IMG/VR virus record: IMGVR_UViG_3300011008_000022
Reading direction: 5' to 3' (one strand)
Source of the DNA: a virus
Length of the DNA stretch: 64,000 bases
Shown: piece by piece, positions 84 to 56,939 of the stretch
Layout: each line of letters begins with the position of its first letter
Numbering within the stretch: the first letter of the stretch is position 1
Notes under the pieces: generated by a model
What the model saw: the letters and a program-made list of their open reading frames with translations, nothing else
Database searches by the model: none
Told to the model about the DNA's origin: nothing
Position numbers and translations under genes: made by a program

Positions 84-130
84 CCACCGTGCCCAGCCGT
101 TCTCGGCTGGGTCTAATAACCCAAAGTAAT

Positions 131-2348: not shown

Positions 2349-2403
2349 TGTCCCGTTTCTTGTATGTCGCGATTCTATTGCGACCTTTAAACCTCAAAAT
2401 CCC

Positions 2404-5467: not shown

Positions 5468-6013
5468 ATGAAACGTCCCCGCATCTATCTCTCAGGCCCT
5501 ATCACTGGCACTACCGACTATAAAGAGCGCTTCGAGGAAGCAGCCTTTATTGTTCAGTGTATGGGCTTTAAGCCAGTCAATCCTACCACAATGTTTGGCT
5601 GGCTGCAACCGTTGTTTTCCATTTGCCCCTATCGCTTCCAGGTCTTCGTCGATTGCATGGTACTCGCTATCTTCTGCAAGGCCATCTATCTGATGAAAGA
5701 CCACGACGCATCCAGAGGCGCACGACTCGAAAAGGCCGTGGCCGACTTCCTGAAGATGCACACTGTGCTCGCTGGTTCTGACAGCGAGAAACCAATCACA
5801 GGGGCTATGAAGGCTGTCGCCGATTTGGGCAGGGCATTCGCCTCTTTGAATGAAACAATCATCAAAGGATGGTCCGAAGAAACTAACTGCACCACTTGTG
5901 CTAACAGTCAGCAGAAAACACCGCGTGGCTACTTCTGTCCCACAACGGGCGAAACAGTCAACCGCCGTATGTGGTGTGAGGCATTCTGTCATCGTGACCC
6001 GTCTAAACAGTAA
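5468..6013 (+). CDS. DUF4406 / nucleoside 2-deoxyribosyltransferase-like protein
   Basis: N-terminal IYLSGPITGTTDYKERFEEAA..GFKPVNP and the later ASRGARLE resemble DUF4406. Confidence 0.55.
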   Translation: MKRPRIYLSGPITGTTDYKERFEEAAFIVQCMGFKPVNPTTMFGWLQPLFSICPYRFQVFVDCMVLAIFCKAIYLMKDHDASRGARLEKAVADFLKMHTVLAGSDSEKPITGAMKAVADLGRAFASLNETIIKGWSEETNCTTCANSQQKTPRGYFCPTTGETVNRRMWCEAFCHRDPSKQ

Positions 6014-6054
6014 CCGTGCCCAGCGTTTTTCCGCTGGTCCTAAATAAAAAAGTT

Positions 6055-8378: not shown

Positions 8379-8405
8379 CCCAGCCGTTCTCGGTTGGGCT
8401 TTTTT
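8379..8405 (+). terminator. hairpin plus T-tract (rho-independent terminator candidate)
   Basis: CCCAGCCG-TTCT-CGGTTGGG followed by CTTTTTT. Confidence 0.6.
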
Positions 8406-10210: not shown

Positions 10211-11488
10211 ATGCCTAACAACAACAACGCACCTGAGTTCATCGGACGTGAGGCACTGACTCACGTAGCCGAGCAAGTAGGTAAGCAGATCGTTATGGGT
10301 CCTGCCTACGAAGATCCTGAGTTGCTCGACCGCCTCGGCATTCAGGTAATTTCTGGCGTTCAGTACAAGAAAACTGACCATCTGCTCGTCCGCAAGGGTG
10401 GCACTACCCGTCGTAAGAAGGTAGGTACACCTGTGGAGAACAAGATTGGTTTCTTGAAGGAGCGCACCCTGGTCGCAAAGCTGACCTGGAACCGTTACCG
10501 CGACAACATCGACAACTATGTTGAGACTGTCTTTGGTACCGACGGTAAGGCCGGTGGCGACTATCCTCTCTCTACGGTCGCATGTGAGGCCATCCTGAAG
10601 TCGTATGCCGAGGATTTGAAGTCTAACCTCTTCTTCGGTAACATGGAGTATGAGGAAGAGAATGACGAAGCCAAGCAGAAGCTCTCTCTCTACGATGGTT
10701 TCCACACCGACATTGCTCACGACATCGCAGATGGTATCATCAGCGAGACCAACGGCAACCTCATTCCTTGTGATGCTATCGGAGTTCCTGAAGACGCTCA
10801 TGACTCGACTCCTTTCGACACCGTTCTGGAGTGGTACACCAAGTGGGATGCTCGTCTGCGCTCTCAGAAGGTAATCAAGCTCCATTGTGACATTCTGCGC
10901 GGTATCTATATCGCCCAGGGTTACACTAACAAGTATCACGGCAATGCTAAGGTGAATTATTTGCCTAACGGCAACTTCACCGTGCCTGAGATGCCTCGTG
11001 TTGAGTTCTGTCCTTCTGACGCTTGGGGTGTTGGTACTCGTCTCATGGCGACTATTCCTAACAACCTCCAGTATGGCGTGGATTCTGAGAACAACCAGAC
11101 CTTCGTAAAGGTACAGTTCGGTTCTGACGACGATGCTCAGGATGTAATCTTCCAGATTCAGTCTATCCAGGGTACTCGTATCTTCAACCCATTGGCTTCT
11201 GCATTCGTTATCAGCGATGGTTCGATTGCCGAGAACGTCATCAATGGTGACTACGAGAACTCTAAGCTCGTCGTGAATATCGACGGTACTGGTACCGTTA
11301 AGGTGAATAACGAGGCTTATAACACGCCGCTGGAGTTCGCTCCTAACGCTATCGTAACGCTGAAGGCTATTCCTGGTAACAACCAGAAGTTTGTCTCTTG
11401 GAGCAACGGCAAGACCGACACTGAGATTTCTATCACAGCAACAGGTATGCCGATGGCTATCACCGCATTCTTCGCTCCTGACGAGTAA
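10211..11488 (+). CDS. major capsid protein candidate
   Basis: 425 aa ORF directly after the protease/scaffold gene, preceded by the TAACCCTTTAAA motif. Assignment rests on synteny and size only. Confidence 0.5.
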   Translation: MPNNNNAPEFIGREALTHVAEQVGKQIVMGPAYEDPELLDRLGIQVISGVQYKKTDHLLVRKGGTTRRKKVGTPVENKIGFLKERTLVAKLTWNRYRDNIDNYVETVFGTDGKAGGDYPLSTVACEAILKSYAEDLKSNLFFGNMEYEEENDEAKQKLSLYDGFHTDIAHDIADGIISETNGNLIPCDAIGVPEDAHDSTPFDTVLEWYTKWDARLRSQKVIKLHCDILRGIYIAQGYTNKYHGNAKVNYLPNGNFTVPEMPRVEFCPSDAWGVGTRLMATIPNNLQYGVDSENNQTFVKVQFGSDDDAQDVIFQIQSIQGTRIFNPLASAFVISDGSIAENVINGDYENSKLVVNIDGTGTVKVNNEAYNTPLEFAPNAIVTLKAIPGNNQKFVSWSNGKTDTEISITATGMPMAITAFFAPDE

Positions 11489-12162: not shown

Positions 12163-12192
12163 GTCCTGCCTCAATCGGTAGGGCTTTTTTTT
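12163..12192 (+). terminator. rho-independent terminator candidate
   Basis: GTCCTGCC-TCAATC-GGTAGGGC (stem includes G-U pairs) followed by T8. Confidence 0.55.
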
Positions 12193-12218
12193 GTCCCCAC
12201 CTCCAAAAAATTTTCCCC

Positions 12219-12226
12219 TATTTTTG
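12219..12226 (+). promoter_or_regulatory. -7 promoter box (TATTTTTG) inside the AATTTTCCCCTATTTTTG motif
   Basis: TAnnTTTG match. The same 18 nt motif recurs at 44282-44301. Confidence 0.45.
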
Positions 12227-13485: not shown

Positions 13486-13585
13486 TCCTCTGCTTCGTTA
13501 ATTGTTAGGCGATTGCATCGCCGTCATAAATAACCACCGTGCCCAACCGTTCTCGGCTGGGTCTTCTTACTTCTCACTTCTCATC

Positions 13586-14310: not shown

Positions 14311-16305
14311 ATGGCCACAGAAAGACGTGATGTATATATGAACGCAATGCAGCAGCGCATCTACTACTCGAATGCGAGGGATGTGCGCCTGCTGGCTGCT
14401 CGACGATTCGGTAAGACGGACGGCTCCATAGGACCTCGTATCTATCGTGTCAGTCAGTCTATGCCTCGTGCTACTAACCTGTGGCTGGGTAACTCTCGTA
14501 AACAGCTCTATACACGTACTGTCCCTGGAACCATTGCGGCCATTGAGCGTTTTTTCAATATTCAGGAGGGACGGCACTTTGGATGGGGTAAACCGCCACG
14601 ATGGGTACAGAAACCTGTCATCACTCCTAAGACTTGGGATAACGTCATCTGGTTTGCTAATGGCACTATCTGGCAACTAATCTCACTCGCAGTCACAGGT
14701 TCGGCCAACTCTATCACGGCCAACAGTATCGTGGCGGATGAGTGTAAGTTTATGTCTAAGGCGAAAATCGACGGAGAAATCATGCCGGCACTGTCTGGTA
14801 TCGTACATCCGTTGGGCGACCCGTCTTTCTCGGATTCTAACCCGCTCTTTAAATCTACTTTCTTCGCTTCTGATGCTTCGCTCACGGCTAAGGGTAACTG
14901 GCTGGAGAAAGAAGAGGACAAACTGGATATGCACCCTGAAACGGGTCCCTATGCGAATAAGACGTATCGTGAGATACAAGCCATGCTCACTGACTATGCC
15001 GAACGTGTCATGTGGGCAAACGAACTGCTCCGTAATGCGAAGCGTGACGGCTGTGTGCCTATCCTCCTGCCGGCTGAACAGATAGCTGCTATCCAGGCGA
15101 AGGCTAAGATGATGATCAACCATGAGGGACCGTTTAAAATCTTGCCAAACTACGGCAAGCGCATCAATAAGGCCATGCTTGAAATGGCCGTCAACTATAA
15201 ACTGATTTCTCCTGATGAAGCGGAATTGCTTTTCTGCCATAAGTATCTCATTACTCCTGAACAGGATTTCGACATGATGATGATATCGGAGTCGAAACCC
15301 TACCAGCGTAAGATACGGGAATTGCAGTGTAATGCGTTCTGCTTTTGGAGGGCATCAAGTCTCGATAATATAGACATCCTTGGTGATTCCTATATAGCGA
15401 GAATGGCGCGTGACCTTCCGCCGGTCGTGTTCGCCATCAGTATTCTTAATAAGAAGATACAGAAGTCTAACGATGGCTTCTACTCCAATCTCGACATCGA
15501 GAATGTTCATGGCTATATTCCCGACGATTGCCCTGCCATCGATAAGAGCATCACCAAGAAAAAGGCTACGAGTGTGCTCAACGGTTCTGCCGTTGAAGAG
15601 GAATACGAGACACCTGACTTCTACGGATTGGGCAACCTGAAGGATTGCACACTCGATGGTGACGTGATGGATGCGCTGCCGTTGTATATCGCACTCGACT
15701 ACAATGCTAACATCAACTGGGTAGTCACGGGCCAACTGTATAAACGCGACAATCAGGAGTGCCTTAATGTCCTGTCTTCTATGTACGTGAAGTACGAACG
15801 TAAGTTGCGTGAACTGATGGCCGACTGGCATCATTACTATAAACCTCACCAGAAGAAAAATACTGAGGTAGTATTTTTCTATGATGCAACGGCTAAGTTT
15901 CGTGGCTATGCCTTGGAGGGTGCCGAGGACTTTAAGGATGTTGTAATATCTGAACTGACGAACTACGGCTGGAACGTCCGTGCTATCGATATGGGTGCGC
16001 CGGTAGAACATCAGCAGAAGTATAAGGATATCAACGAGTCTTTGGCTGGGGCTATCTATCCGGCTATCCGCATCAACCGTGAAAATAACGAGGCGCTGAT
16101 TGTGGCACTCACCACTGCCGAGGTGCAGATGTCCTATCGTGGCTTCCGCAAATGGAAAGCGGGTGAAAAGCTCTCTGAAAGCGAGGATGATTCTGTACGT
16201 CTCGAATACCGTACAGACGGCACGGATGCTTTCGACTCGCTATACATCGGATGCCGCTACCACCTCGCCAACATGTCCGGCATGTGTCTTCCCCTTGGAG
16301 ATTAG
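14311..16305 (+). CDS. terL: terminase large subunit
   Basis: Walker A-like LLAARRFGKTDG near the N-terminus and Walker B-like NSIVADECKF. The 664 aa size fits. Confidence 0.7.
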   Translation: MATERRDVYMNAMQQRIYYSNARDVRLLAARRFGKTDGSIGPRIYRVSQSMPRATNLWLGNSRKQLYTRTVPGTIAAIERFFNIQEGRHFGWGKPPRWVQKPVITPKTWDNVIWFANGTIWQLISLAVTGSANSITANSIVADECKFMSKAKIDGEIMPALSGIVHPLGDPSFSDSNPLFKSTFFASDASLTAKGNWLEKEEDKLDMHPETGPYANKTYREIQAMLTDYAERVMWANELLRNAKRDGCVPILLPAEQIAAIQAKAKMMINHEGPFKILPNYGKRINKAMLEMAVNYKLISPDEAELLFCHKYLITPEQDFDMMMISESKPYQRKIRELQCNAFCFWRASSLDNIDILGDSYIARMARDLPPVVFAISILNKKIQKSNDGFYSNLDIENVHGYIPDDCPAIDKSITKKKATSVLNGSAVEEEYETPDFYGLGNLKDCTLDGDVMDALPLYIALDYNANINWVVTGQLYKRDNQECLNVLSSMYVKYERKLRELMADWHHYYKPHQKKNTEVVFFYDATAKFRGYALEGAEDFKDVVISELTNYGWNVRAIDMGAPVEHQQKYKDINESLAGAIYPAIRINRENNEALIVALTTAEVQMSYRGFRKWKAGEKLSESEDDSVRLEYRTDGTDAFDSLYIGCRYHLANMSGMCLPLGD

Positions 16306-16344: not shown

Positions 16345-16371
16345 CCCAGCGCCTCTCCGCTGGGATTTTTT
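16345..16371 (+). terminator. hairpin plus T-tract
   Basis: CCCAGCG-CCTCTC-CGCTGGG followed by ATTTTTT. It is the second of two tandem hairpins after terL. Confidence 0.55.
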
Positions 16372-16397
16372 GTCCCACCCTCGTTACCCCTTCTTCG

Positions 16398-16405
16398 TAT
16401 CTTTG
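16398..16405 (+). promoter_or_regulatory. -7 promoter box (TATCTTTG)
   Basis: Part of the recurring cassette TTTTGTCCCACCCTCGT.AC...CTTCGTATCTTTG; also seen at 29598-29633, 38186-38222 and 63713-63749. Confidence 0.5.
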
Positions 16406-17241: not shown

Positions 17242-17288
17242 TGGCCACTGTGCCCAGCCGCTCTCGGCTGGGTCTTAAAAGCAAAAGT

Positions 17289-18496: not shown

Positions 18497-19750
18497 ATGA
18501 AGAAAGCAAAGACATTCCTCAACCCTGGTGAAGGCATCGCTCGCGTGTTGTGTGTCACCAGTGCCAGCAACTTCTACGAGGCGCTGCCATCTGAGGTTGC
18601 AAATGCGGCCATCCCCTCTACGGTGGTCGGTGCGCTCGCTTCCAAACACACGTTGGAAGAAAACTCTAACCCTGCATTCACGGTCAATAATCGTGGTGCT
18701 GCAGAACTCTATCAGACTCAGATGGGTGGCTATATGTTCTTCCGTAAAGACGGAAAAGTGTATGCTGCCAAACTGAATGGTTCTACATGGGATAAGTTCG
18801 CAGATGCGACTCCTGTCACAGCTGCTATCGAAGCAGCCTGTGAAACGATGATCCATGTGCCTGACTGTAACTATCTCGGAGAGAACAAAACTCTGAACTT
18901 TGGCGGTCTCGTGCCTATCGATGGTGGCCATATCTTTGGCTCACCTCATTGGGTAGGTGCTTACCTGATGTCTGTCGATGGTGGCGGTGCCGGACACTCA
19001 CGCCCGAACGTGGCTCCTGGTCATTCTAAGACGATGAGTGCATTCTGGAACTGCGCACAGCAGCTCGGCACACAATGGGGATTGGCCAACTATGGTTTCT
19101 TCTGTCTCATCAATGCGCTTTTCCAGGCTCGCTATGGCTCTCTGAACTCGCAGGAGGTCATTGGTGCCGGATTCCAGACAAGTTCATGGGAGGCGGCTCG
19201 TAACGTGCCTATGGGCCTCTGTAAGTCGCTGGGTGATGGCTCTGGTAAGGTGTTCTACACCGATGCTACCATTGGCGACCAATATCCTGTAAAACTCTTC
19301 GGTTTCGAGGATCTATGGGGTAAGCTGTGGGAGTCCCGTCCTGGCATCCGCTTTGAAATGCGCGATAACGTGCGCTATGCTATCGTCTATGATGGCAACG
19401 TCGTCAGCAATACTGCTACTGGACGTGAATTTATCTGTGCTCTCTCTTCTCAGAGTGGCAGTGGTACTTATGCTAAGAGCATGGAACTGGGCGAATACTG
19501 GGATATGATATGCCAGGCTGTTGGTGCCGGTTCTAATACATACTACTGCGACGGGTATTGGTTCGCTACGGGTGGTCAGCTGCTGCTCGTCGGGGGTGTC
19601 GCGTCTTACGGTGCGCTATGCGGTCTGTCGTGTGCGAGCTCGATTTACGGTTTCTCGGTCTCGCACACGATCATCGGCGCTCGCCTGGCCTTCTACGGAG
19701 AGCCGGAAATCGTGAGCGGTGCGGAGCTGGTGGCCATGATTAACGCGTAA
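18497..19750 (+). CDS. DGR variable protein 1 (likely receptor-binding/tail protein with C-terminal C-type-lectin-like VR)
   Basis: 417 aa ORF whose C-terminal region ..QLLLVGGVASYGALCGLSCASSIYGFSVSHTIIGARLAFY.. is encoded by VR1. It is preceded by TAACCCTTTAAA. Confidence 0.85.
   Translation: MKKAKTFLNPGEGIARVLCVTSASNFYEALPSEVANAAIPSTVVGALASKHTLEENSNPAFTVNNRGAAELYQTQMGGYMFFRKDGKVYAAKLNGSTWDKFADATPVTAAIEAACETMIHVPDCNYLGENKTLNFGGLVPIDGGHIFGSPHWVGAYLMSVDGGGAGHSRPNVAPGHSKTMSAFWNCAQQLGTQWGLANYGFFCLINALFQARYGSLNSQEVIGAGFQTSSWEAARNVPMGLCKSLGDGSGKVFYTDATIGDQYPVKLFGFEDLWGKLWESRPGIRFEMRDNVRYAIVYDGNVVSNTATGREFICALSSQSGSGTYAKSMELGEYWDMICQAVGAGSNTYYCDGYWFATGGQLLLVGGVASYGALCGLSCASSIYGFSVSHTIIGARLAFYGEPEIVSGAELVAMINA
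19578..19696 (+). repeat. DGR variable region VR1
   Basis: Ungapped 119 nt alignment to TR 20052-20170. There are 17 mismatches, all at TR adenines, and all 91 non-A positions are identical. Confidence 0.92.
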
Positions 19751-20051
19751 GCGTTACATCATAGGCCAGCCGGCCTCTGGCTCGCGACCTCTTTGTAAAG
19801 TGCTCGGCGGTTCCGCCGCCGAGAATGAAATAATAAAATAGTATTAACAATAAAAAAAGTCACATCAAGAGGTGAAGTCACAAGAGCGTGACCATCCATA
19901 AAAAATTGACTTACTGAGACACTTGATGTCAGGGATTGACTTCCTGAACATACAAACTGATAGACTCCTTCCCCAAAGAGAATAGCAACATAGGTTGTTC
20001 GAGCCTTCTACAGCTCAACGGGGAAACGGAGCAAACGGCAACATATCGTGG

Positions 20052-20170
20052 AGCTGCTGCTCGTCGGGGGTGACGCGAATAACGGTGCGCAATGCGGTCT
20101 ATCGTATGCGAACTCGAATAACGGTTTCTCGAACTCGAACACGAACATCGGCGCTCGCCTGAACATCTAC
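20052..20170 (+). repeat. DGR template region (TR)
   Basis: Non-coding copy of VR1/VR2. In the VR frame it reads ELLLVGGDANNGAQCGLSYANSNNGFSNSNTNIGARLNIY, with nine AAC/AAT codons. Confidence 0.92.
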
Positions 20171-20502
20171 ATTGAACAAAAAAGAGTTATCTGATATGTT
20201 TCCACTGTTTGTCCTCACTGACTTCGCGAAAGCCAAAGAGGATGAGCACACGATTGAGCCGGTCTCGATGGAGGGTTAGCGAGTGCAAAGCGGTTTCCCC
20301 GCTTTGTCCTCTCTACCCGACAGAGCAAAGATAAAAGGCGTTGGGTATGAGCCTGACATATAGATGCACTATCACATCGTCGGGCAACAGAGTCCCCTCG
20401 CGCAAGTAAGCAAGACAGTTGTACGTCTATACCGAACACCCGTGAGCCGAGAAATGTAGAAGGCCCTCCCTGAAATATCATGTGTCACAATGAAGAGAAA
20501 CA
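20171..20502 (+). ncRNA. TR-to-RT spacer, probable 3' part of the DGR RNA
   Basis: 332 nt with no plus-strand ORF longer than 27 codons. It contains hairpin CAAAGCGG-TTTCC-CCGCTTTG near 20287-20307. The function is inferred by analogy to the Bordetella phage BPP-1 TR-Sp RNA. Confidence 0.3.
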
Positions 20503-21849
20503 ATGGCAGAATTAGCTTATCAGCGAAAGAAACGCCTGCGCGGAAAGAACCGCAAACTACGCATCAGCATGGTCTATGACCCGCTGAACCTACGTCAAGC
20601 CGACATCGAGGCACGACGTGGTAAGGATGCTCATAAAGGGGTACGTCTCTTCGACAAAGACCCGCAAGGCAATCTCTCTTTACTGCATGATTGGCTGAAG
20701 ACTGAGACCTATCATACTTCTCCTGGGCATGAGTGTGTCAGACACTGCCCATGCGGAAAGGATCGAGTGCTTCACAAGCTGCCATACTTTCCTGACCACA
20801 TCGAGAACCATGCACTGATGCAGGTCATCATGCCTACCATGATGCGGGCGTATTACTACGACTCCTCGGCATCTATCAAAGGTAAGGGTATGCACTTTGC
20901 GGAACGACGTACCAAACGATACATCGATATCCACCGCAAGCATAATGACCGCATCTATTTCGTCAAACTGGATTTCGTGAAGTTCTACCATAACATCGAC
21001 CAGGAAAAGATTTACAAGCACCTGGCAAAGAAGTTTGGCGATCGGGGTGTACGCTATCTCATCCGTGAGATAGTAACGGCATGTGAAAAGGGACTGGGCA
21101 TCGGATTGTTCCCAATACAGCCTATCGCCAACTACTACACATGTCCGCTATGCCGACTGGTGATGATGCTCTTTGACGTGTGGATGGAGATATACTGCGA
21201 TGATATGGTCATCATTGGTACCGATAAGAAAGAGGTATGGAAAGCGGTAAATTTCATCCAGCAGTATGCGGAGGATGTTATGGAACAGCCACTGCATGAG
21301 AATATCGGAATGCAGATCATCGACGAACGCCACCGCCTCGATTTCGTGGGTTACATGTTTTTCTTCAAACACACGCTGCTGCGCAAGCGGATGAAAAAGA
21401 AGTTTAAGCGGAAGATGCACCGCATCAAAGACCCGCTGAAACGCTATCGCGCCGCTGCAAGTTACAAAGGATGGCTCATGCACTGCAATGGTTTTAGTCT
21501 CTGGTGTGCTGTAATGAATATGAAATCTTACAAGGAACTAAATGTACCTACATTCGAGAAAAAGAACGCAGAGGGCAAACGCATACTCGAAGGAACAAAG
21601 GTATCGGCATCGATGCTTTGTGGACGCGAGTTGGTGTTTACTGACGTGGAGTTTGACGTGAAATCGAAGTACAACAAGCCGGCAACAGTGATTCAGGTGG
21701 AGGAGAACGGACAAAAATATAAGTTCTTCACCAACAACCAGAAACTCACACAGGCGCTGTCCTACATCAATGCTCACGATGGCTTCCCGTTCAAGGGCAC
21801 AATCGTTCGCACAAACTCCTCTGGCCTACCCGACTACGCCATACAGTAG
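20503..21849 (+). CDS. DGR reverse transcriptase with about 108 aa C-terminal extension
   Basis: IGLFPIQ resembles the DGR-type [I/L]GxxxSQ motif. The catalytic YCDD is at 21193-21204. SYKGWLMHCNGFSLW resembles the usual DGR RT C-terminus at aa 320-335, but the ORF continues to aa 448. Confidence 0.88.
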   Translation: MAELAYQRKKRLRGKNRKLRISMVYDPLNLRQADIEARRGKDAHKGVRLFDKDPQGNLSLLHDWLKTETYHTSPGHECVRHCPCGKDRVLHKLPYFPDHIENHALMQVIMPTMMRAYYYDSSASIKGKGMHFAERRTKRYIDIHRKHNDRIYFVKLDFVKFYHNIDQEKIYKHLAKKFGDRGVRYLIREIVTACEKGLGIGLFPIQPIANYYTCPLCRLVMMLFDVWMEIYCDDMVIIGTDKKEVWKAVNFIQQYAEDVMEQPLHENIGMQIIDERHRLDFVGYMFFFKHTLLRKRMKKKFKRKMHRIKDPLKRYRAAASYKGWLMHCNGFSLWCAVMNMKSYKELNVPTFEKKNAEGKRILEGTKVSASMLCGRELVFTDVEFDVKSKYNKPATVIQVEENGQKYKFFTNNQKLTQALSYINAHDGFPFKGTIVRTNSSGLPDYAIQ

Positions 21850-21914: not shown

Positions 21915-22604
21915 ATGAAAAAGTCAGAATTTTTTGAGCGTCCCGACCTCGCCACCATCGAAGGCGATGTCCTGCGTATCTCTTTCGGCGTGACTGAGGA
22001 ACAGGTGCCTGTCAATCCACAAGAGGAAACCCCTGCTGGTCAGGAGCCGGAAACTCGTACTCTCTACCGTGCTTATGTGGTACGTCTGAAGAACCCGTTT
22101 ACCATTGAGCGTATCAAAGCTGCATTGCTCACACATGAGTATGACGGCGAAGTGCTGCCTGACACGGTGGCTGAAGCCATTGCTGCAGAGGCATTGCTGA
22201 TGCTCGTGGATGCAGGCATCCTCACAGGCGACCGCCTCGCTATCGCTAAGACGATGAAACTGGCACAGCTGGCAACCTACGACAACTCGGATGCGGTCAA
22301 CCTCTTCACCTACAAGGGTGTCAATATGTGGCTCGACAAAGACACGCGCAATGGTCTCATCGCACGTCTCAATGCTGAGAAGGCCATGGGTAAGACCACT
22401 TCGACGCTTTGGTACGAAAACCAGTCTTTCACGCTCGACATCGACGATGGTCTGCAGATGCTCGCTGCCCTCGAAGTGTATGCTTCTGAGTGCTACGACT
22501 GCACAGCGTCTCACCATGCTTCCATCATTGCTATGGAGGTGTCTGATGCGGTCATTGCCTACGACTTCACCGTTGGCTATCCTTCCAAGTTGGTCTTTAA
22601 CTAA
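21915..22604 (+). CDS. hypothetical protein
   Basis: The track starts at TTG 21906; the first ATG is at 21915. It is preceded by TAACCCTTTAAA at 21892-21903. Confidence 0.65.
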   Translation: MKKSEFFERPDLATIEGDVLRISFGVTEEQVPVNPQEETPAGQEPETRTLYRAYVVRLKNPFTIERIKAALLTHEYDGEVLPDTVAEAIAAEALLMLVDAGILTGDRLAIAKTMKLAQLATYDNSDAVNLFTYKGVNMWLDKDTRNGLIARLNAEKAMGKTTSTLWYENQSFTLDIDDGLQMLAALEVYASECYDCTASHHASIIAMEVSDAVIAYDFTVGYPSKLVFN

Positions 22605-22617
22605 TTGTATCACCGTG

Positions 22618-22637
22618 CCCAGCCGTTCTCGGCTGGG
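22618..22637 (+). repeat. intercistronic hairpin, family H1 (representative copy)
   Basis: CACCGTG-CCCAGCCG-TTCT-CGGCTGGG-TCCTAA lies between stop 22602-22604 and ATG 22655. Confidence 0.85.
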
Positions 22638-22654
22638 TCCTAATTCCCAATAGT

Positions 22655-23140
22655 ATGACAACATTGCTTCTTATCTCGGTTTTGATAACAGTCCTCTATG
22701 TGGGCACGACGATCTACATCCATAAGGAACTGCCGGCATCGGTGTCGCACATGGTGTTCAACCTGCCGCGTAACTATCAGTTCCTATGGACGCTGTTCAT
22801 CTGGTCTGTAGCCTTTGGCAACGTACCGGCTCTGCTCGACGCAATGGAAGGCTCAATATTCCAGTTTGTCGGTTTCCTGTTCATCGCGTCACTGGCTTTC
22901 ATCGGTGCCATGCCGCTCATCAGGAACAATCCGAACACCGCCCACTCGGTACTGGCTATCGTCGCTGGAGTGCTCTCTCAGCTCTGTGTGCTAATCATCA
23001 GCCCTTACTGGATGTTGCTCTGGTTCTCGCTCATATACTTCCTGTTTGCACCGCTTCCTAAGTGGCTCAACGGCAAAGGTATCTTTGTCCTCGAAGTGTA
23101 TTGCTACACCACTCTCATTGCGGCCATACTCTGTCATTAG
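22655..23140 (+). CDS. polytopic small membrane protein
   Basis: 161 aa with 4-5 hydrophobic segments, for example LLLISVLITVLYVGTTIYI and VLAIVAGVLSQLCVLIISPYWMLLWFSLIYFLF. Confidence 0.65.
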   Translation: MTTLLLISVLITVLYVGTTIYIHKELPASVSHMVFNLPRNYQFLWTLFIWSVAFGNVPALLDAMEGSIFQFVGFLFIASLAFIGAMPLIRNNPNTAHSVLAIVAGVLSQLCVLIISPYWMLLWFSLIYFLFAPLPKWLNGKGIFVLEVYCYTTLIAAILCH

Positions 23141-23191
23141 TTCTAACCACCGTGCCCAGCCGCTCTCGGCTGGGTCCTAAACAGATAAGAT

Positions 23192-27200: not shown

Positions 27201-28783
27201 CGTCCATCGATACCACATCTGATGGTACAGTGACTACGAGTGTTCTCACCGTCTCACAGGCTGGCTATTATAAGTTAGGCTTCTACGCATACAAAACGCA
27301 AGGTCATGCTGGCGACCCAGGACAGTCGGTAACAGTCAACTGGTGGCGTGTCCTCTGTACCTCCAACAACAGCCGTCTCGATACCTACTGCTATCCGTCT
27401 GCAGTGGCTGGTGGCACTACCTACTTCGTCGATGGCGTGGTAAAGACTAACCTCCCTGGTGATACCGGCATACCGTGGTATCTCGACAATGACGATGATC
27501 TGGCAGACAACCTCGGTTGGACGCACCACTCTGTCACGTTCCTTACTAAGTCTGAGATAACGGCTGCCGACCAAAAAATCCTCTTCCGCATATTCAATAC
27601 CTACGTGGAGATATACAACCCCAAACTGGAAGAGTGTATCATGGCTACGCCCTGGTGCGAACATGAGGGCGACAATGACATGCACTGCGACCATAACCCA
27701 TGTGGCTCGTGGCGCTCAGGAGAGCGTTACTTCTACTGCAATGGTCAACGTGATGTCATCCAGGCTGCCATCAGTGCCTCTAACACCAACAAGACGTGGT
27801 ACCGCATGAAGAAGCGCACCACCTCGCAAGGCTACCTCTCCACCACACAGCCCTATCTCGACACCGAACACTGGGAAAAGGCTTCTAACCTTAAATTCGC
27901 CATCGTTGATGCCATGTTTGCCGAGGAGATCTTCACCGACAAACTCACTGTCTCGAAAATTCGTGGCGCTAACGGCAAATTCACGCTCGACGAAAATGGC
28001 AACGTCACGGCTAATGGTGGAACGTACAATAACATCAGTGCTCGTGGTGGTACGTTCTATAATGTGGCTGTGCGTGGCTCGCTTCGCAATGCTTTCTCTG
28101 TAGTGAATGGTTCGTTTGATGCGGATTTCAACGACAACATTGCCGTCATTTCGAGTGGTGGCGGTTGGATTGACGCTTACTCTGTACCTTGGGACGCTTC
28201 GCAGAGTGGCCGTGTCATTCATATCGTCAACTATAAGTGGGGCAGTTTGACCGCTGAAGGCCGTGCTGAATTTGGCGCACCATCAGGTAAGTATTTCTTT
28301 GAGGATGGTTTGTTGAAAACGGCTCTTACGGTGTCTCGTGAGTTGATAACACTGCTCGGCTATGGTGACAGTAGTACGTTCTATGGTTGGATTGTCGTTG
28401 ATCGTATCGACCTGGCATCTTCTCGTCGTTATGGTCACAACCTGAAAGCATTGGGCTATGGCACTATATCTGGTAGTCCTTATGGCGCATCATTGAGCAA
28501 TTATAGAACGTTCGATGGTTCTACACTATCGGTTTCTCGTCAGGGAGAGGGCTGGTATCGCCTGACTTTCCCGAATAACTGGTTTAATTCGCCGTCAACA
28601 GACCTCGGCATTATTCTTACAGGACGTGGTTTCGCATATAATGCAGAGTCACCACTGAAAGGCTCTATTCGTACTATCTCTTCAACTTATGTCGATATAG
28701 ATGTGTCCGACGATTCCTCACGAAATGATGGCTCAGTGGATTTCATAATCTATAACAAGTTCGACTTTGAGATTCTGACATAA
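24296..28783 (+). CDS. large tail fibre / receptor-binding protein candidate
   Basis: 1495 aa S/T/G/N-rich ORF with repeated motifs (LDLDNEMDSLPCD / FSIDIDNEMAAIPVN; LDRETIPVI / LDRETIPII). Function is inferred from size and composition only. Confidence 0.6.
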   Translation: MKPVISQTFAITAQKPTVSVDHIDNYYITEASGIQPAANDSRWQFVPEGQQAPVPTSAAPYLWHKSITYLTDGSHLDPVIEFGGSLGQNGYDYDLVPSHSAIIKAQDDTVTPANVSCSLIKRNADGSAERQTTPPAGYSIQVYRDTTASAYTLGTNVSTANVSVITFVLLYGAIEVERHDIRVIAEGAEGLTGRGIQSQSTRFKANTTGSVPATPTNDNEWNTWAALSQSGYSETNRYLFQCVRTVYVDGNNNTTTEYMVSGPTVWGRDGDDAIVLDLDNEMDSLPCDSTGKVTTATTIVVNAKLYKGATQITSGITAPTAASVKLAGVTPTVSQSSGTVSLSWQFAANTSLADERYIITIPVTYNQKTYQVAFTLNALRSGAPGVSPTIYKVLPSQHLLAFSRNSSDVLTPSTHSLYCGYSKNYNGTISTEANQTTAFDTTYRIFYRYLNNGSWSAWNAYVAILSIASSTTTTAYEFCIAKTTNSNNVTDALILDRETIPVIKSGQKGNTGTNAFSIDIDNEMAAIPVNQQGKVETLKTLTFGLQAYYGITPVGSSCTITAENIPTGFTVNLDDPLNPVITIAADTTPAEISEITFKAVHATYGTREAVFTVCAVKSGGKGEDAELYQLLPSQTTLPFDRNANGNINTRSYTLTSQIQLIKGNVTTNYSSLSGYYIYYGWNGAASPSSILSTSGITVSQWYPNNGYTSVVLELWRGARSVSGSVRLDRETIPIITDGARGPEGEGDPGNGISVDDFYYCLTGTPTPPTTPLTTANGWYKQGTTGCPTAPTNAKPYLWQCEHIEYTEDTSMNKNIIKLVQVYNMGIQPNLLEQTAFDSEDVMNKWMTANGQVVPQARGQHNAWGAFPGTNTYSEMLQQLVYRPGSVGKIRPANYYTLSFYSRTRRYVNVTGDTYGFYFGNIYLKAGSYKFQFNGHCSQAAKDAGVNLSGYLWYSGDYGQTEDWSRSVSTSIDTTSDGTVTTSVLTVSQAGYYKLGFYAYKTQGHAGDPGQSVTVNWWRVLCTSNNSRLDTYCYPSAVAGGTTYFVDGVVKTNLPGDTGIPWYLDNDDDLADNLGWTHHSVTFLTKSEITAADQKILFRIFNTYVEIYNPKLEECIMATPWCEHEGDNDMHCDHNPCGSWRSGERYFYCNGQRDVIQAAISASNTNKTWYRMKKRTTSQGYLSTTQPYLDTEHWEKASNLKFAIVDAMFAEEIFTDKLTVSKIRGANGKFTLDENGNVTANGGTYNNISARGGTFYNVAVRGSLRNAFSVVNGSFDADFNDNIAVISSGGGWIDAYSVPWDASQSGRVIHIVNYKWGSLTAEGRAEFGAPSGKYFFEDGLLKTALTVSRELITLLGYGDSSTFYGWIVVDRIDLASSRRYGHNLKALGYGTISGSPYGASLSNYRTFDGSTLSVSRQGEGWYRLTFPNNWFNSPSTDLGIILTGRGFAYNAESPLKGSIRTISSTYVDIDVSDDSSRNDGSVDFIIYNKFDFEILT

Positions 28784-28811
28784 CTTCATAAATTCATAAA
28801 TTCATAAAATA

Positions 28812-29530: not shown

Positions 29531-29556
29531 CCCAGCCGTTCTCGGCTGGGTTTTTT
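29531..29556 (+). terminator. H1 hairpin plus T6
   Basis: CCCAGCCG-TTCT-CGGCTGGG followed by TTTTTT, directly after the amidase stop. Confidence 0.6.
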
Positions 29557-29625
29557 ATGTCCCGTCTCTTGTGTGGCGATTGCATCGCCGTCACGCTTTG
29601 TCCCACCCTCGTCACCTCTTCTTCG

Positions 29626-29633
29626 TATCTTTG
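29626..29633 (+). promoter_or_regulatory. -7 promoter box (TATCTTTG)
   Basis: TAnnTTTG match in the conserved cassette, followed by leader hairpin 29658-29676. Confidence 0.5.
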
Positions 29634-29693
29634 TGTCATAAAAAGTATGTTCCGTATGCTGCGATAGTATCGCAGCCCTAAAAGAAAAGAATT

Positions 29694-30923
29694 ATGCTGA
29701 TATCAACAACTGAAGAGCTGCGTCTCTACTCACCGGCTAACGCCATCGACCACATCGACTCCATTCAGGGCTACATCACAAGCTCTGAAAAAGACACCTT
29801 GCTCGAAAAACTGGGCACACCACTCTACGAGGCTTTGGTAAAATACTACCGTGACCTACGTGCCTCTGAGGATGGTATCTCTACGTTCATCAAGTCTGTA
29901 ACCGATGGCGAAGATATGCCGCCATACGCACAGCTGCTCACCGTATGTCAGCGTATCATCACGTTCGATGCACTCGGACGTGCCATCGACATCCAGGCCG
30001 TGAGTGTCAATGGCTCTGGCGTGAATATCTCCACTGCCGACGATTACGGCAAAGCGGATGATAAGGCTATCCAGGCGTATAAGTCCACCTGCATCAAAGA
30101 GACTCATGCTGCCATCAATGCACTGCTCGTCATGCTCGAACAGTGGTACAAAGAAGCAACCCCTACCAACCCTGAAAACCCACTCGTTCCCGCTCCATCC
30201 TCTCCTGTGCTCGGTGATTCGGTCGCCGAGAATGAAGCCACCGTGCCCGATGATTCTCCATCGGGTGACACCCCCGCTCCCGACGCTCCTGCGTCCGGCG
30301 ATTCGGTTGCCGAGGAAGACCCCGACCCCTCCACCGAGAAAGCAGAGATAGCATCCTTGTGGGGCCATTCCCGCTACTTCTACCTGGCTGCTTCTCTCGC
30401 TATCCCCTCTGCAACCGTCCTGCAGGAATATCTGAACATCTACGACTCTCGCGAGAAGTTCATCACCATGCTTCCTGACCTCCGCTATATCCAGGAGGAC
30501 ATCATAGCACCTATCATCGGAGAAGATTTCCTCGACTACCTCATTGAGCGCTCGCGTGTACTTGACCGTAGTGCGCTCGCTGGTTCTGCCAGCGAGGGTG
30601 ACGAAAAACTCCTCACTCGCATCATCCACAAACTCCGTAAGGCGGTTGCTCACCACCTCGAAGCGCGTACCATGCAGCTGAAGACTACGGACCCTCGACG
30701 TGAGGCTGCTCGCAACGAGGCGGTACGTCTTACCACCGACCTCTCAGAGTATATCCAGACACATCAGCAATCCTTACCAGAGGCAGCTATCGAAGCATTG
30801 AAAACGTCACCGCTCTGTGTCGCCGCTACTTCCGATGCTTCTCCCTCTGGCGGTTATACGCCTAACTTCCAAAACAATAGCGATGATGCCGTAATGTTTG
30901 TAACACCCGCTCTCCCACTCTAA
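29694..30923 (+). CDS. hypothetical virion-module protein with hairpin-element insert
   Basis: 409 aa ORF. The low-complexity centre PVLGDSVAENEATVPDDSPSGDTPAPDAPASGDSVAEE is encoded by hairpin elements at 30210-30311. Confidence 0.65.
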   Translation: MLISTTEELRLYSPANAIDHIDSIQGYITSSEKDTLLEKLGTPLYEALVKYYRDLRASEDGISTFIKSVTDGEDMPPYAQLLTVCQRIITFDALGRAIDIQAVSVNGSGVNISTADDYGKADDKAIQAYKSTCIKETHAAINALLVMLEQWYKEATPTNPENPLVPAPSSPVLGDSVAENEATVPDDSPSGDTPAPDAPASGDSVAEEDPDPSTEKAEIASLWGHSRYFYLAASLAIPSATVLQEYLNIYDSREKFITMLPDLRYIQEDIIAPIIGEDFLDYLIERSRVLDRSALAGSASEGDEKLLTRIIHKLRKAVAHHLEARTMQLKTTDPRREAARNEAVRLTTDLSEYIQTHQQSLPEAAIEALKTSPLCVAATSDASPSGGYTPNFQNNSDDAVMFVTPALPL

Positions 30924-33452: not shown

Positions 33453-33496
33453 CCACCGTGCCCAGCCGTTCTCGGCTGGGTCCTAAACAAAAGAAT

Positions 33497-34267
33497 ATGA
33501 AACAAGACAAATATTTCTTACGCTTTCAGCAGCTCTGCATTGGCATCCTGGCTCAGTCTGACAACTGCATGGAGTCACAACAGCAGTTCAAGTCTGCTCG
33601 CTCCGTTCCTGAACTGGTGACGGCATGGCAGCGATTTTGGGCGGGTGTCCTACACGAAGTACCTGAACAGGTCATCAAGGCTTTTGCTGACCTCTACCCC
33701 GTCTATCGTGATGACATTATTCGTGCCGGTGTCTATTATAACGAGGCTCCGCCTGTCGGCATCTATCCTGAAAACCCTATATCTCCCGTCTCACCCTCCG
33801 ATGCAGCCACCGTGCCCAGCGCTTCTCCGTTGGGTCCTACCACCAACGCCATGATACTCATCGGCGATGCTCCCGCCACCGTTCCCGATGATTCTCCATC
33901 GGGTGAAACAGCTTCTCCATCGGATCTCGTAATTCATGGCCGTAATCGTGTCTATGTCCTCGGCAACCTCCCCGTGACTGTCACCGACAATTCCAGCGTC
34001 CATGTCAACAGCGACCGTGCCGTAGTGACCGTATGTGGTTCTGCTCGTGCTAACATCGAACGGGGAACACTCATCGCTCGTGACCGTGCCGTAGTCAATG
34101 GCAAGGGTCTCATAACCTGCTACGACTCTACGACGATATATGTCTCTGGTGGTGTCCTGCACGATAAAGGACACCTCGATATCATCGCCTATAACGATGC
34201 GGTCATCAACAGCTTCACCAACCGTCGCATCAAACTCAACGACCAGGCAATCCTGAACATCGAATAA
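33497..34267 (+). CDS. hypothetical protein, C-terminal beta-helix-like repeats
   Basis: The first ATG after hairpin 33461-33480 is at 33497. It has repetitive V.V..(N/D) segments. In-frame hairpin elements lie at 33815-33834 and 33884-33903. Confidence 0.6.
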   Translation: MKQDKYFLRFQQLCIGILAQSDNCMESQQQFKSARSVPELVTAWQRFWAGVLHEVPEQVIKAFADLYPVYRDDIIRAGVYYNEAPPVGIYPENPISPVSPSDAATVPSASPLGPTTNAMILIGDAPATVPDDSPSGETASPSDLVIHGRNRVYVLGNLPVTVTDNSSVHVNSDRAVVTVCGSARANIERGTLIARDRAVVNGKGLITCYDSTTIYVSGGVLHDKGHLDIIAYNDAVINSFTNRRIKLNDQAILNIE

Positions 34268-34319
34268 TAGTCTCTCCACCGTGCCCAGTCGTTCTCGGCT
34301 GGGTCCTAAAAGTAAAAGT

Positions 34320-36941: not shown

Positions 36942-36989
36942 TCACAGTGCCCGCTGATTCCGTCAGCGGGTCTCTAAAACGTATAAAAA

Positions 36990-38108: not shown

Positions 38109-38214
38109 CCACCGTGCCCAGCGCTTTTTCGCTGGGTTTTCTTCGTCACCGTGCCCAGCCGTTCTCGGCTGGGTCTTCAAATCACTTTGTCCCGTCCTCG
38201 TCACTCGCATTCTG

Positions 38215-38222
38215 TATCTTTG
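38215..38222 (+). promoter_or_regulatory. -7 promoter box (TATCTTTG)
   Basis: TAnnTTTG match after two tandem H1 hairpins (38117-38136, 38154-38173), followed by leader hairpin 38245-38263. Confidence 0.5.
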
Positions 38223-38283
38223 CAATATAAAAATAGTTCTGTATGTCGCTATGTCTTAGCGACTTTAAAAAGGAAATAAGATT

Positions 38284-40119: not shown

Positions 40120-40166
40120 TTCTGTATGTCGCTATGTCATAGCGACCTCAAAATAAAAGAAAAGAT

Positions 40167-41776: not shown

Positions 41777-41820
41777 TCACCGTGCCCAGCCGCTCTCGGC
41801 TGGGTCTCAATCTATAAGGT

Positions 41821-43164: not shown

Positions 43165-43188
43165 CCCAGCCGTTCTCGGCTGGGTTTT
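43165..43188. terminator. hairpin plus T-tract in a convergent gene gap (possible bidirectional terminator)
   Basis: CCCAGCCG-TTCT-CGGCTGGG-TTTT lies between the end of the plus operon (43066) and the end of the minus-strand ORF (43187). A second hairpin is at 43110-43133. Confidence 0.5.
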
Positions 43189-43753: not shown

Positions 43754-43905
43754 ATTCTAAAAGTATTAAGTGAAAAATGTTTCGTCTATTGTTCGGCGAT
43801 TGCATCGCCGCTTTTCGTTCTGTGCCCAGCGCTTTTCCGCTGGTCCTGTATGTCGCTATGTCATAGCGACCTTAGCCATCGTGCCCAGCCGTTCTCGGCT
43901 GGGTC

Positions 43906-44728: not shown

Positions 44729-44748
44729 ATTCATAAATTCATCAAACA

Positions 44749-45284: not shown

Positions 45285-45313
45285 CCCCGCCGATTTCGGT
45301 GGGGTTTCTTTTT
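45285..45313 (+). terminator. hairpin plus T-rich tract
   Basis: CCCCGCCG-ATTT-CGGTGGGG followed by TTTCTTTTT. Confidence 0.5.
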
Positions 45314-46475: not shown

Positions 46476-46496
46476 CTCCGAGATCTACGACACTCA

Positions 46497-46609: not shown

Positions 46610-46685
46610 AAATCAAATTTTAATCTAAAATTTTTAGAAACATTTAGTAAACAACATTAAGTTTAACCCAGCGATGCCACCGCAG

Positions 46686-47771: not shown

Positions 47772-47825
47772 CAGCAGATTTAAAAAGTTATTCACCGCGC
47801 CACCGGCGCACAAAATTAAAAAATT

Positions 47826-51904: not shown

Positions 51905-51959
51905 CACCGACAAATAAAAGTTTAACCGAGCCACGAGGCTCACAAAAAAGTATTTCATC

Positions 51960-52790: not shown

Positions 52791-52893
52791 CCCACCGTGC
52801 CCAGCCTTTCTCGGCTGGGTCCCTCTTTTCATTCATTCATCAATTCATCAAATCATTAACCGAGCTTTCAGGCTCACGAAAAAAATCAAACTT

Positions 52894-55244: not shown

Positions 55245-55300
55245 CACCGACAAATAAAAGTTTAACCGAGGGAATCCCTCACAAAAAACATTTTCAGCGT

Positions 55301-56877: not shown

Positions 56878-56939
56878 CAGCGTAAAACAATAAATAATAT
56901 GTTTCACCGAGGGTCAGCCCTCACAAATAAACAAAGAAT

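Follow-up and report, generated by a model that had tools for sequence, protein, structure and literature searches.

The 64,000-nucleotide stretch of viral DNA analysed here (IMG/VR virus record IMGVR_UViG_3300011008_000022, the window in what follows) carries many copies of a small GC-rich hairpin cassette, H1, some of which end a short and nearly constant distance upstream of a start codon. At the index junction, a gene ending in TAA is followed by an H1 cassette, which is composed of a conserved single-stranded 5' flank, a stem-loop with an extra G.U pair (22617/22638) and an unstructured spacer leading to the ATG of the next gene, and that gene has H1 cassettes on both sides (Table 1). The flank follows a family consensus, CCACCGTG, in which A5 is conserved at 90% and C6 at 83% among 96 distinct copies, and the index spacer opens with the family-wide TCCTAA and contains no G until position -2. 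Two further hairpin families, H2 and the promoter-leader (PL) hairpins, are found at the same distance from other start codons of the window.

A preliminary description of this DNA had proposed that the hairpin together with a single-stranded A-rich stretch is itself what determines translation initiation, in a genome devoid of Shine-Dalgarno (SD) motifs. The convergent geometry, the equivalence of the hairpin families and the SD-independent initiation on which that proposal was built were all recovered in our analysis, whereas the role of the hairpin as a required determinant, or as an insulator of the start site, was not.

A megablast search of 24 kb against INPHARED gave no close match to the window among GenBank phages. 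The window is a member of a family of uncultivated IMG/VR viral contigs of ~100 kb each, of which IMGVR_UViG_3300026549_000055 (101,861 bp) is 97–99% identical to it; in more distant relatives the identity of the capsid-like protein falls to 69% (individual contigs are designated L001, L004 and so on). Every gene of the window lies on the + strand, and all available parts of the genome appear co-oriented. The window is part of a ~100-kb phage or phage-plasmid of rumen Bacteroidota, with Prevotella as the probable host; the sole bacterial match to the H1 motif among 185,579 species genomes is a Prevotella metagenome-assembled genome from roe-deer rumen, and the motif has no match in INPHARED.

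Hairpin structure and distance to the start codon

The H1 core occurs 23 times in the window, against 0.21 matches expected. A covariance model built from 33 copies recovered 45 matches in the window (44 on the + strand) and 42 further matches elsewhere in related genomes, on the gene strand every time; the H1 copies are all in direct orientation. Pairing is retained in 93% of H1 stem cells, with 37 double-changed cells against 10 in shuffles, and in 99% of H2 stem cells, with double changes in six of seven pairs, while the PL stems GAGCC, GAGGG and GCGCC each have a matching 3' arm. G.U pairs outnumber A.C pairs by 22 to 5 among the 96 distinct H1-type copies (P = 0.0015), which indicates that the fold is selected on the transcribed strand. 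The hairpins are thus real sense-strand structures, and a double-stranded DNA operator or a cruciform is disfavoured by the mid-stem covariation and by the G.U over A.C asymmetry. The most strongly conserved parts of H1 are T20 of the loop (invariant in the 96 copies), the CCC/GGG base of the stem and CCAC of the 5' flank. Stems are 5–9 bp long, reaching at most 11–13 bp with wobble extensions. Rfam gave no match at gathering thresholds, and only two sub-threshold chance matches at E <= 1.

The preliminary description had paired 17 stem ends with start codons at spacers of 16–20 nt, and all of its coordinates proved correct. It listed fitting copies only, 9 of the ~45 sense-strand H1-type copies preceding an ATG by 16–20 nt, and a fifth PL hairpin (47797-47809) was missing from its list. 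In a generic hairpin scan, 31 intergenic regions held at least one hairpin at dG <= -6, and for each of these the end of the last hairpin before the ATG was compared with uniform placement in the region. This end fell 15–20 nt before the ATG in 15 of the 31 regions, compared to 3.7 expected (none of 100,000 simulations reached 15), and in no region did it come closer than 15 nt, compared to 9.2 expected (analytic P ~4e-6). Pooling the window with related IMG/VR contigs gave 165 non-identical hairpin-to-ATG junctions, of which none lay at 0–10 nt, 31 at 15–20 nt (mode 17) and 3 at 21–27 nt, with broad scatter beyond; 24 distinct hairpin sequences fell in the 13–21 nt range. Copies are not independent, as H1 shares flanks and parts of the spacer, and the effective sample is a handful of families rather than 17 cases. 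Despite this limited independence, the spacing pattern is not a product of chance, and the claim that three sequence-unrelated hairpin families have one geometry was borne out, with stem covariation in H1 and H2 and compensatory differences among the PL hairpins.

For comparison, the strong intergenic hairpins in the first 50 kb of the Bacteroides phage crAss001 are terminators with T-runs, located 17–120 nt from the ATG. None of these eight hairpins lies less than 17 nt from an ATG, and there is no pile-up among them. An exclusion zone without a pile-up suggests that the exclusion zone is general, and that the pile-up is peculiar to the U-tract-less cassettes of the present family.

An initiation region independent of the hairpin

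The 63 starts of the window have a pronounced initiation profile. Against a genome-wide A content of 26%, A reaches 63, 74, 66 and 60% at -14 to -11 and 58–68% at -6 to -3 (60% at -6, 68% at -3), T occupies -1 in 69% of starts, and G is reduced to 1–3% at -16 to -13. AGGA, GGAG or GAGG occurs within -18 to -3 in 3 of the 63, whereas 9.5% of background 16-mers contain one of these, in agreement with the reported lack of SD motifs. Structure is low around the starts, with no hairpin less than 15 nt from any ATG and a mean predicted unpaired probability of ~0.61 from -18 to +10. The mRNA channel of the 30S subunit is reported to span about -15 to +16 (Yusupova et al. 2001), which fits the 15-nt exclusion seen here.

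The profile matches that published for Bacteroidia (PMC6847099), which identifies the spacer as an SD-independent, A-rich initiation region of this type. The Bacteroidia region (Baez et al. 2019, PMC6847099; Jha et al. 2021, PMC7797042) is likewise SD-less with low structure at the start, and adenines are enriched in both at -14 to -11, -6 and -3; as published it has no upstream hairpin boundary, whereas here some initiation regions have a stable helix at -16 to -21 as their boundary. In Flavobacterium johnsoniae, A-12/-13, A-6 and A-3 raise translation, the stretch from -20 to +20 is unstructured, and domain 4 of bS1 has been placed near -12 to -15, with a contact proposed (PMC6847099); how A-12 and A-13 act is structurally still unresolved (PMC13000457).

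The same region is found at genes that have no hairpin. At 45 genes with none within 25 nt, the A-rich profile is identical and has the same sharp 5' edge, G+C dropping from 44% at -17 to 13% at -16, and the initiation regions beside hairpins are at least as A-rich as the others. Some hairpin-less leaders carry other short motifs in the same place (AACCCTTTAAA before 10211, 18497 and 21915; TCCTAAAAG before 24296), and hairpin-less promoters lie 17–29 nt from the ATG, a distance comparable to the modal 5' untranslated region (UTR) of B. thetaiotaomicron, 23 nt (PMC7366714).

Partition-function folding of -120 to +40 around 17 starts gave a mean unpaired probability of -18 to +10 of 0.612 for native sequences, 0.613 after scrambling of the hairpin and 0.597 after its deletion (Wilcoxon P = 0.85 and 0.46). 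Predicted accessibility of the start site is thus unaffected by scrambling or deletion, contrary to the suggestion that the hairpin insulates it. The ATG and the preceding 15–20 nt are outside the helix at all 18 sites, which does not fit the standby-site model of de Smit and van Duin, with the start sequestered in a hairpin and the 30S subunit waiting on single strand beside it. The hairpin as the initiation determinant itself is argued against by the hairpin-less genes and orthologues, which share the region and lack the hairpin, and by the tie of H1 to the stop codon described below; a modest enhancing effect of the hairpin on translation is possible.

Placement, turnover and genomic setting of the cassettes

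H1 is positioned by the upstream stop codon: 19 of the 30 intergenic H1-type copies start no more than 18 nt past it (mode 9 nt, at which the 8-nt flank comes straight after the stop codon), and only 9 of the 30 have an ATG within 20 nt. In seven H1 copies the stem is followed by a T-run and then by a promoter with TTTGTCCC 25 nt before TATCTTTG, and these are intrinsic terminators. The nine nucleotides after the stem hold 1–3 T in the nine start-adjacent H1 copies and 6–7 in seven others, and a U-tract right after the GC-rich hairpin is thus confined to the latter. Start-adjacent copies share the GC-rich 7–9 bp stem of terminators but continue with TCCTAAA in place of a U-tract, and efficient termination is not expected of them; we found no usable literature report of U-tract-less terminators in Bacteroidota. 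None of the 12 promoter-to-ATG leaders contains H1, the leader hairpins being H2 or PL. H2 occurs both after stop codons and in 5' leaders, PL is confined to the early-promoter region at 47–57 kb, and H1 is found mainly in the structural region.

Thirteen H1-type copies lie in frame within genes, in P/S/T/A-rich linkers. They encode tV-LxGSxxE or tV-PxxSPxG, and their variable codons change pairwise in a manner that preserves the stem (GGT/ACC, GCT/AGC, AAC/GTT). The copy at 42995 is missing, as an in-frame indel, from a 92–95% identical relative. The cassette at 33815 has an in-frame ATG 16 nt past the stem, which suggests an old gene fusion through the cassette, or an internal start. At six of the nine H1 sites next to a start (16- or 19-nt spacers), the GTG of the flank (89, 6016, 17250, 33458, 34281 and 41782) is in frame with the downstream ATG with no stop codon between. 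Programs that call open reading frames (ORFs) accordingly run these genes on through the hairpin; the ATG starts, rather than the flank GTG, are favoured by the conserved N-termini of the proteins in relatives.

Comparison with relatives revealed that the cassettes are dispensable in orthologous contexts. There is no hairpin at the junctions orthologous to those before 2404, 6055, 6945 and 17289 in L030, L038, L040, L043 and L025-L028. The H2 before 2404 is missing from L026 and L030, the H1 before 6055 is missing where relatives have a downstream gene of 82% identity, L001 lacks the two H1 copies that follow 38108, its stop codon there abutting the promoter, and the copy at the 41204/41267 junction is missing in L004. 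The window carries ~45 H1 copies, whereas relatives with a capsid-like protein 70–84% identical have few or none.

Where hairpins are retained, one family can stand in for another. H1 and H2 are swapped at four junctions, with the spacer kept at 14–21 nt: before 17289, L023 has H2 and most of the distant relatives are hairpin-less; before 34320, H2 is found in L018 (97.5% identical overall) and L001; before 40167, L001 has H1 in place of the H2 of the window; and before 41821, L004 has H2. Swapping with the spacer kept argues that both families do the same job. Stems are conserved or compensatorily changed in ~85% identical relatives (22618, A-U to C-G), as they are for the H2 at 38245-38263 in L001 and for the PL at 47797-47809 in L006 (GCCTC/GAGGC). 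The spacer sequence diverges in the ~85% identical relatives, its length staying within 1 nt, and the stop-to-hairpin segment contains 6-nt indels.

Copies also recombine with each other. In the 98.5% identical contigs L015 and L017, a 119-aa gene lies between two H1 copies at a site where the window has one hybrid H1 (13542), the outcome of a recombination event between the copies. A 77-nt indel between relatives is bounded by H1, and homology breakpoints coincide with hairpin clusters.

Several other repeats share the intergenic space with the hairpins (Table 1). G-free tandem 8-mers, (A/T)TTCAT(C/A)A in 3–7 repeats, fill stop-to-ATG gaps, mostly in the early region, and at junctions with hairpins in the window L040 has ATTCTCAA arrays and L043 has ATTCATAA arrays. 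These arrays look like another interchangeable intergenic cassette and may serve as unstructured translation leaders. A fourth repeat family, TGTYYCGTYTMTTGT..GGCGATTGYATCGCC, forms a short hairpin with a conserved 5' flank and is located between terminators and promoters. Tandem 21-nt repeats (CCGCCATGTCGCACAAAACAC), iteron-like and in 5–7 copies, occupy 46752-46898, within a 1.3-kb region (46475 to 47826) that holds no convincing gene.

Promoters are of the Bacteroidota host type, TTTG...TAnnTTTG. In the structural region they carry the conserved element TTTGTCCC 25 nt upstream of TATCTTTG, and in the early region (47.7–60.5 kb) the canonical TTTG at 19–20 nt; TTTG is overlapped by the T-run of the preceding terminator. 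The TTTGTCCC promoters may form a separate late promoter class.

Window genes that could be recognised include those for a head-maturation protease, tail proteins, a reverse transcriptase, an NAD-ligase, methyltransferases, ParA and a Rep-like protein. Beyond the window, the same genome encodes a primase, a DNA polymerase III beta clamp, a C5 methylase, a beta-ketoacyl synthase and an Rv2179c-like 3'-5' exoribonuclease domain, which would be of relevance to hairpin-protected 3' ends if it acts on RNA. No RNA polymerase gene was found in the annotated parts of the genome, and no tRNAs were found. A ParA-type ATPase (AAA_31, E = 1.5e-36) and a weak Rep3-like initiator, with genes at 60522-61385 and 62192-63661, suggest plasmid-like maintenance, i.e., a phage-plasmid; these observations on gene content cover contigs L003, L007 and L016 besides the window. 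The product of gene 10211-11488 is called the putative major capsid protein by position only. A PDB sequence search, Pfam and PHROGs gave it no assignment, and tblastn gave one weak unannotated match only; its gene has no hairpin upstream and one after its own stop codon.

The window also contains a diversity-generating retroelement (DGR) in the region 19577-21849 plus 1006-1122, with a reverse transcriptase gene at 20503-21849 (PHROG 1423, E = 1.8e-63) and a template repeat at 20051-20167. One variable repeat (19577-19693) forms the C-terminus of the tail-protein gene 18497-19750, and a second (1006-1122) the C-terminal part of ORF 598-1215. Mismatches fall at template adenines in 17 of 18 cases for the former and 19 of 22 for the latter. 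A GTGCTCGGCGGTTCCGCCGCCGAG hairpin (19799-19823) directly follows the first variable-repeat gene. It is of the same subfamily as the in-gene H1-type copies and may be the DGR target-recognition hairpin.

Table 1. Positions of hairpins and associated features in the window
Feature	Position	Strand	Remarks
Upstream gene of index junction, 21915-22604, stop TAA	22602..22604	+	H1 cassette begins 5 nt later
H1 5' flank, conserved, single-stranded, TCACCGTG	22610..22617	+	
H1 index stem-loop, CCCAGCCG-TTCT-CGGCTGGG	22618..22637	+	8 bp, ~-18 kcal/mol
Unstructured spacer, TCCTAATTCCCAATAGT	22638..22654	+	17 nt; Bacteroidia-type translation initiation region
Downstream gene, 161 aa	22655..23140	+	ATG 22655; H1 cassettes on both flanks
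H1	92..111	+	19-nt spacer, ATG 131
H1 variant, CCAGCG/CGCTGG	6020..6037	+	17-nt spacer, ATG 6055
H1	17253..17272	+	16-nt spacer, ATG 17289
H1	23155..23174	+	17-nt spacer, ATG 23192
H1	33461..33480	+	16-nt spacer, ATG 33497
H1 with U.G wobble	34284..34303	+	16-nt spacer, ATG 34320
H1-type variant, different stem CCCGCTGA/TCAGCGGG	36950..36970	+	19-nt spacer, ATG 36990
H1	41785..41804	+	16-nt spacer, ATG 41821
H2, 5' flank TTCTTGTATG	2366..2384	+	19-nt spacer, ATG 2404
H2 in 5' leader, promoter TATCTTTG (29626)	29658..29676	+	17-nt spacer, ATG 29694
H2 in 5' leader, promoter TATCTTTG (38215)	38245..38263	+	20-nt spacer, ATG 38284
H2 right after stop TAG (40117-40119)	40128..40146	+	20-nt spacer, ATG 40167
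PL, GCGCC-ACC-GGCGC	47797..47809	+	16-nt spacer, ATG 47826
PL, early-type promoter TTTG-N20-TATCTTTG at 51897	51927..51941	+	18-nt spacer, ATG 51960
PL	52861..52875	+	18-nt spacer, ATG 52894
PL, promoter at 55237	55267..55280	+	20-nt spacer, ATG 55301
PL, promoter at 56870	56909..56922	+	17-nt spacer, ATG 56940
H1 as intrinsic-terminator stem (GGGTTTTTTATG)	29531..29550	+	9 nt past stop codon, then promoter
Other T-run H1-type copies	8379-8398, 16345-16364, 38117-38136, 43165-43184, 45285-45304, 63689-63708		
Hybrid H1	13542..13561	+	5' part from one copy and 3' flank from the second
Full H1-type cassette, in frame in gene 33497-34267 (ATVPSASPLGPTTNAM)	33815..33834	+	
Other in-frame coding copies, among them	30244-30267, 33884-33903, 38842-38861, 43034-43053, 44618-44637, 59056-59077		
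In-frame GTGCTCGG...CCGAG subfamily	5768, 9555, 15573, 30210, 30576, 42995, 59279		
In-gene hairpins	5768-5788, 9555-9575, 15573-15602, 30210-30267, 30576-30596, 33814-33903, 38842-38861, 42995-43053, 44618-44637, 59056-59077, 59279-59297		
G-free 8-mer arrays	28783-28811, 44728-44748, 51540-51578, 53139-53175, 55735-55770, 56359-56395, 57356-57400, 59510-59540, 60395-60455		
Structural-region promoters with TTTGTCCC	12190-12226, 16365-16405, 29600-29633, 38186-38222, 63708-63749		
TGTYYCGTYTMTTGT..GGCGATTGYATCGCC repeat family	13491-13523, 29558-29590, 43778-43810, 46713-46745, 55136-55168, 56770-56800		

Known systems, alternative readings and significance

Among known bacterial repeats, REP/BIME elements are GC-rich imperfect palindromes found after stop codons, as in operons of the E. 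coli malEFG type, where they shield the upstream mRNA from 3' exonucleases; they are chromosomal, often arranged as inverted pairs, and mobilised by RAYT transposases. H1 resembles them as a GC-rich palindrome past the stop codon, present in many copies, with a conserved 5' flank and no U-tract, but differs in being specific to a phage lineage and in a single orientation, and no RAYT was found in an incomplete protein scan. A host REP family is ruled out by the single match among the species genomes searched. Rickettsia palindromic elements (RPE) are chromosomal, 100–150 bp long, and intergenic or in frame at tolerated coding sites; the phage unit is likewise found in frame in linkers, but is ~35 nt long and occurs on the sense strand only. 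RNase III sites of the T7 type, which are long irregular duplexes of about two helical turns, are ruled out by the shortness of the stems. Promoters of a phage RNA polymerase or N4-type hairpin promoters were likewise rejected, as no polymerase was found and host-type TTTG/TAnnTTTG promoters are present instead.

Closer parallels exist among phages. The PeSL/PmSL elements of T4-like phages (Arbiol 2010, PMC2839356; Comeau 2014, PMC4122927) are also repeated intergenic composite cassettes with a lineage-specific consensus, consisting of a stem-loop, promoter, ribosome site and start codon and located at indel or replacement boundaries, where genes between two copies can be deleted. PL cassettes (103-nt repeat D7) and the composites of H1, T-run and promoter fit this organisation, and our cassettes too are tied to indels and replacements, including a deletion between two copies. 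The PeSL stem-loop, however, precedes a sigma-70 promoter and an SD, whereas start-adjacent H1 has no promoter, most H1 copies being promoter-less and inside operons of the structural region, with the hairpin abutting an SD-less initiation region and with some copies in frame within genes. The SAS/ESAS repeats of Cluster K mycobacteriophages (Pope 2011, PMC3203893) are also asymmetric, in a single orientation and at a fixed short distance before some starts; inverted repeats lie immediately before about half of the SAS copies, the host genome has no SAS, and a role in translation has been proposed (PMC3203893). H1 shares with SAS its single orientation (44 of 45 matches) and its phage specificity. 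SAS is, however, a 13-bp, SD-containing repeat, 3–7 bp from the start of non-structural genes only, whereas the phage hairpin ends 15–20 nt upstream, is tied to the preceding stop codon and has no ribosome-pairing motif, TCCTAA being the only conserved part of its spacer.

The reading we favour, and consider somewhat more likely than not, is that the hairpins are interchangeable end-of-cistron RNA cassettes packed against a minimal initiation region of 15–16 nt. H1 would be an end-of-cistron element consisting of the stop codon, the 8-nt flank, a GC-rich stem of 8–9 bp and a UUCU loop. With a T-run it acts as an intrinsic terminator; without one it sits inside operons, where it would most likely form a 3' barrier that protects the mRNA of the upstream cistron after cleavage in the A-rich spacer, a segmental stabilisation of the REP kind, and perhaps acting also as a weak pause or attenuator. 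H2 would do the same job after stop codons and serve in 5' leaders as well, and PL would be the leader hairpin of early transcripts. A stable helix inside the initiation region would be expected to block binding of the 30S subunit and bS1, and the compact genome would push each hairpin against the -16 edge, such that steric exclusion and compaction together would produce both the hard lower bound of ~15 nt and the pile-up at 15–20 nt. Cassettes would turn over by homologous recombination between copies, giving rise to gene deletions and insertions, H1/H2 swaps and in-frame coding copies; by analogy with PeSL cassettes (PMC4122927), the promotion of modular exchange would be a side effect.

Several points weigh against this reading. 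The mRNA-stabilising role of the U-tract-less hairpins is proposed by analogy with REP-type and other intercistronic stabilisers; that the spacer is cleaved, and that the 15-nt limit stems from steric exclusion, is likewise inferred. A generic exonuclease barrier needs no conserved loop, stem base or 5' flank, and their conservation hints at sequence-specific recognition. A function at 3' ends does not account for the 13 in-frame coding copies, whose codon changes are compensatory. The peak is tight (mode 17, almost nothing at 21–27 nt), as a positive spacing optimum would likewise predict, and H2 and PL stay 16–20 nt from the ATG even where the 5' leader is long and the intergenic region not a short one. 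Common descent of the hairpin copies makes the P values overstate their independence; thermodynamic folding, finally, is a weak test of insulation.

In the model of the preliminary description, hairpin and single-stranded A-rich window form a positive initiation determinant, the helix acting as an insulator and as a 5' boundary or standby platform, and bS1 and the 30S subunit loading on the first 16–20 nt window and picking the next AUG. The tight spacing with its gap at 21–27 nt, its preservation across H1-to-H2 swaps, and the equal distance of H2 and PL in long 5' leaders, which show less evident compaction pressure, all speak for such a boundary, as does the similarly distant 5' end of hairpin-less transcripts, given the 23-nt modal 5' UTR (PMC7366714), and the structurally unresolved action of A-12 and A-13 (PMC13000457) leaves room for it. 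We nevertheless consider it unlikely, since the 45 hairpin-less genes have the same A-rich profile and -16 edge, orthologues are expressed from hairpin-less junctions, and the putative capsid gene 10211 has a hairpin after its stop codon and none upstream. H1, moreover, takes its position from the stop codon and turns up in terminators and within genes, but not once in a primary 5' leader; no gain in accessibility is predicted, and A content beside hairpins is no weaker, giving no sign of compensation. A broader form of the model, to which we attach little credence, would have SD-less Bacteroidota choose starts by a 5' boundary (an RNA 5' end or a stable helix) followed by an A-rich window of ~16 nt, on which the 30S subunit and bS1 would load; H1, H2 and PL would be interchangeable boundary hairpins, evolved in this phage family to provide independent internal ribosome entry points within long polycistronic mRNAs, and in-frame copies would mark domain linkers. 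The conserved loop, stem base and single-stranded 5' flank around a covarying mid-stem are the usual signature of protein-bound hairpins, and the hairpins could thus be operators for sequence-specific RNA-binding regulators of phage or host origin, with H1, H2 and PL as regulatory classes (e.g. late, middle and early) through which binding would control stability, read-through or translation of adjacent cistrons. The partition of families, with PL in the early-promoter region only and H1 mainly in the structural region, and the lineage-specific sequences would fit. We judge this improbable, however, as no candidate RNA-binding protein was identified in the annotated parts of the genome, H1/H2 exchange even between 97.5% identical genomes would reassign genes between regulons, many relatives have no hairpins, and recent recombinational spread could explain the conservation as well.

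That the hairpins are selfish or neutral palindromic repeats (REP-, MITE- or RPE-like) with no function at the RNA level, spread and homogenised by recombination and surviving only where harmless, i.e., past stop codons, no nearer than 15 nt to a start or, in frame, within disordered linkers, would account for the lineage-specific expansion, with ~45 copies here and few or none in the relatives with a 70–84% identical capsid-like protein. It would also account for the common presence/absence and swap polymorphisms, the deletion between copies, the indel polymorphism of an in-frame copy and the P/S/T/A-rich linkers in which coding copies lie. Yet the restriction to a single strand and the bias of G.U over A.C point to selection on the transcript, stems are kept by compensatory changes, some copies are clearly terminator stems, the hairpins of 85% relatives have diverged less than the spacers beside them, and no RAYT/TnpA-type transposase was seen among the proteins scanned, for which annotation is incomplete, so that we find this reading doubtful. 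Far less probable still is that the hairpins stabilise pauses in nascent RNA, holding RNA polymerase ~10–12 nt downstream, just before the start codon, and thereby keeping transcription in step with the loading of ribosomes or with an elongation factor, as in Bacteroides capsule-operon leaders. Bacteroides RNA polymerase does use hairpin-stabilised leader pauses, and in one class, counted from the pause, the hairpin ends at -14 and the start codon is at +9, a comparable distance (PMC11685472), and PL and H2 are located in 5' leaders. But a polymerase 10–12 nt past the hairpin still covers the initiation region and would be of no help to ribosome loading, H1 lies after stop codons in operons with 13 copies within genes, no specialised NusG-like factor was found in the annotated parts, and no pause consensus was seen, although none was sought.

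The geometry amounts to a natural deletion series, in which a stable helix is tolerated up to -16/-15, and never closer, in many independent contexts. This implies that an unstructured, G-free leader of ~15–16 nt is sufficient for initiation on these SD-less mRNAs, a figure that bears on the role of A-12/A-13 and bS1 in Bacteroidia and offers a design rule for Bacteroides and Prevotella expression constructs. Intergenic punctuation can also be modular, in that unrelated hairpins take each other's place at a junction, as G-free 8-mer arrays do in some relatives, and this exchangeable punctuation mediates gene gain and loss, which carries the PeSL concept beyond T4-like phages to those of Bacteroidota. 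Should the hairpins indeed stabilise upstream cistrons, the phage would have in them a compact means to set the stoichiometry of its structural proteins.

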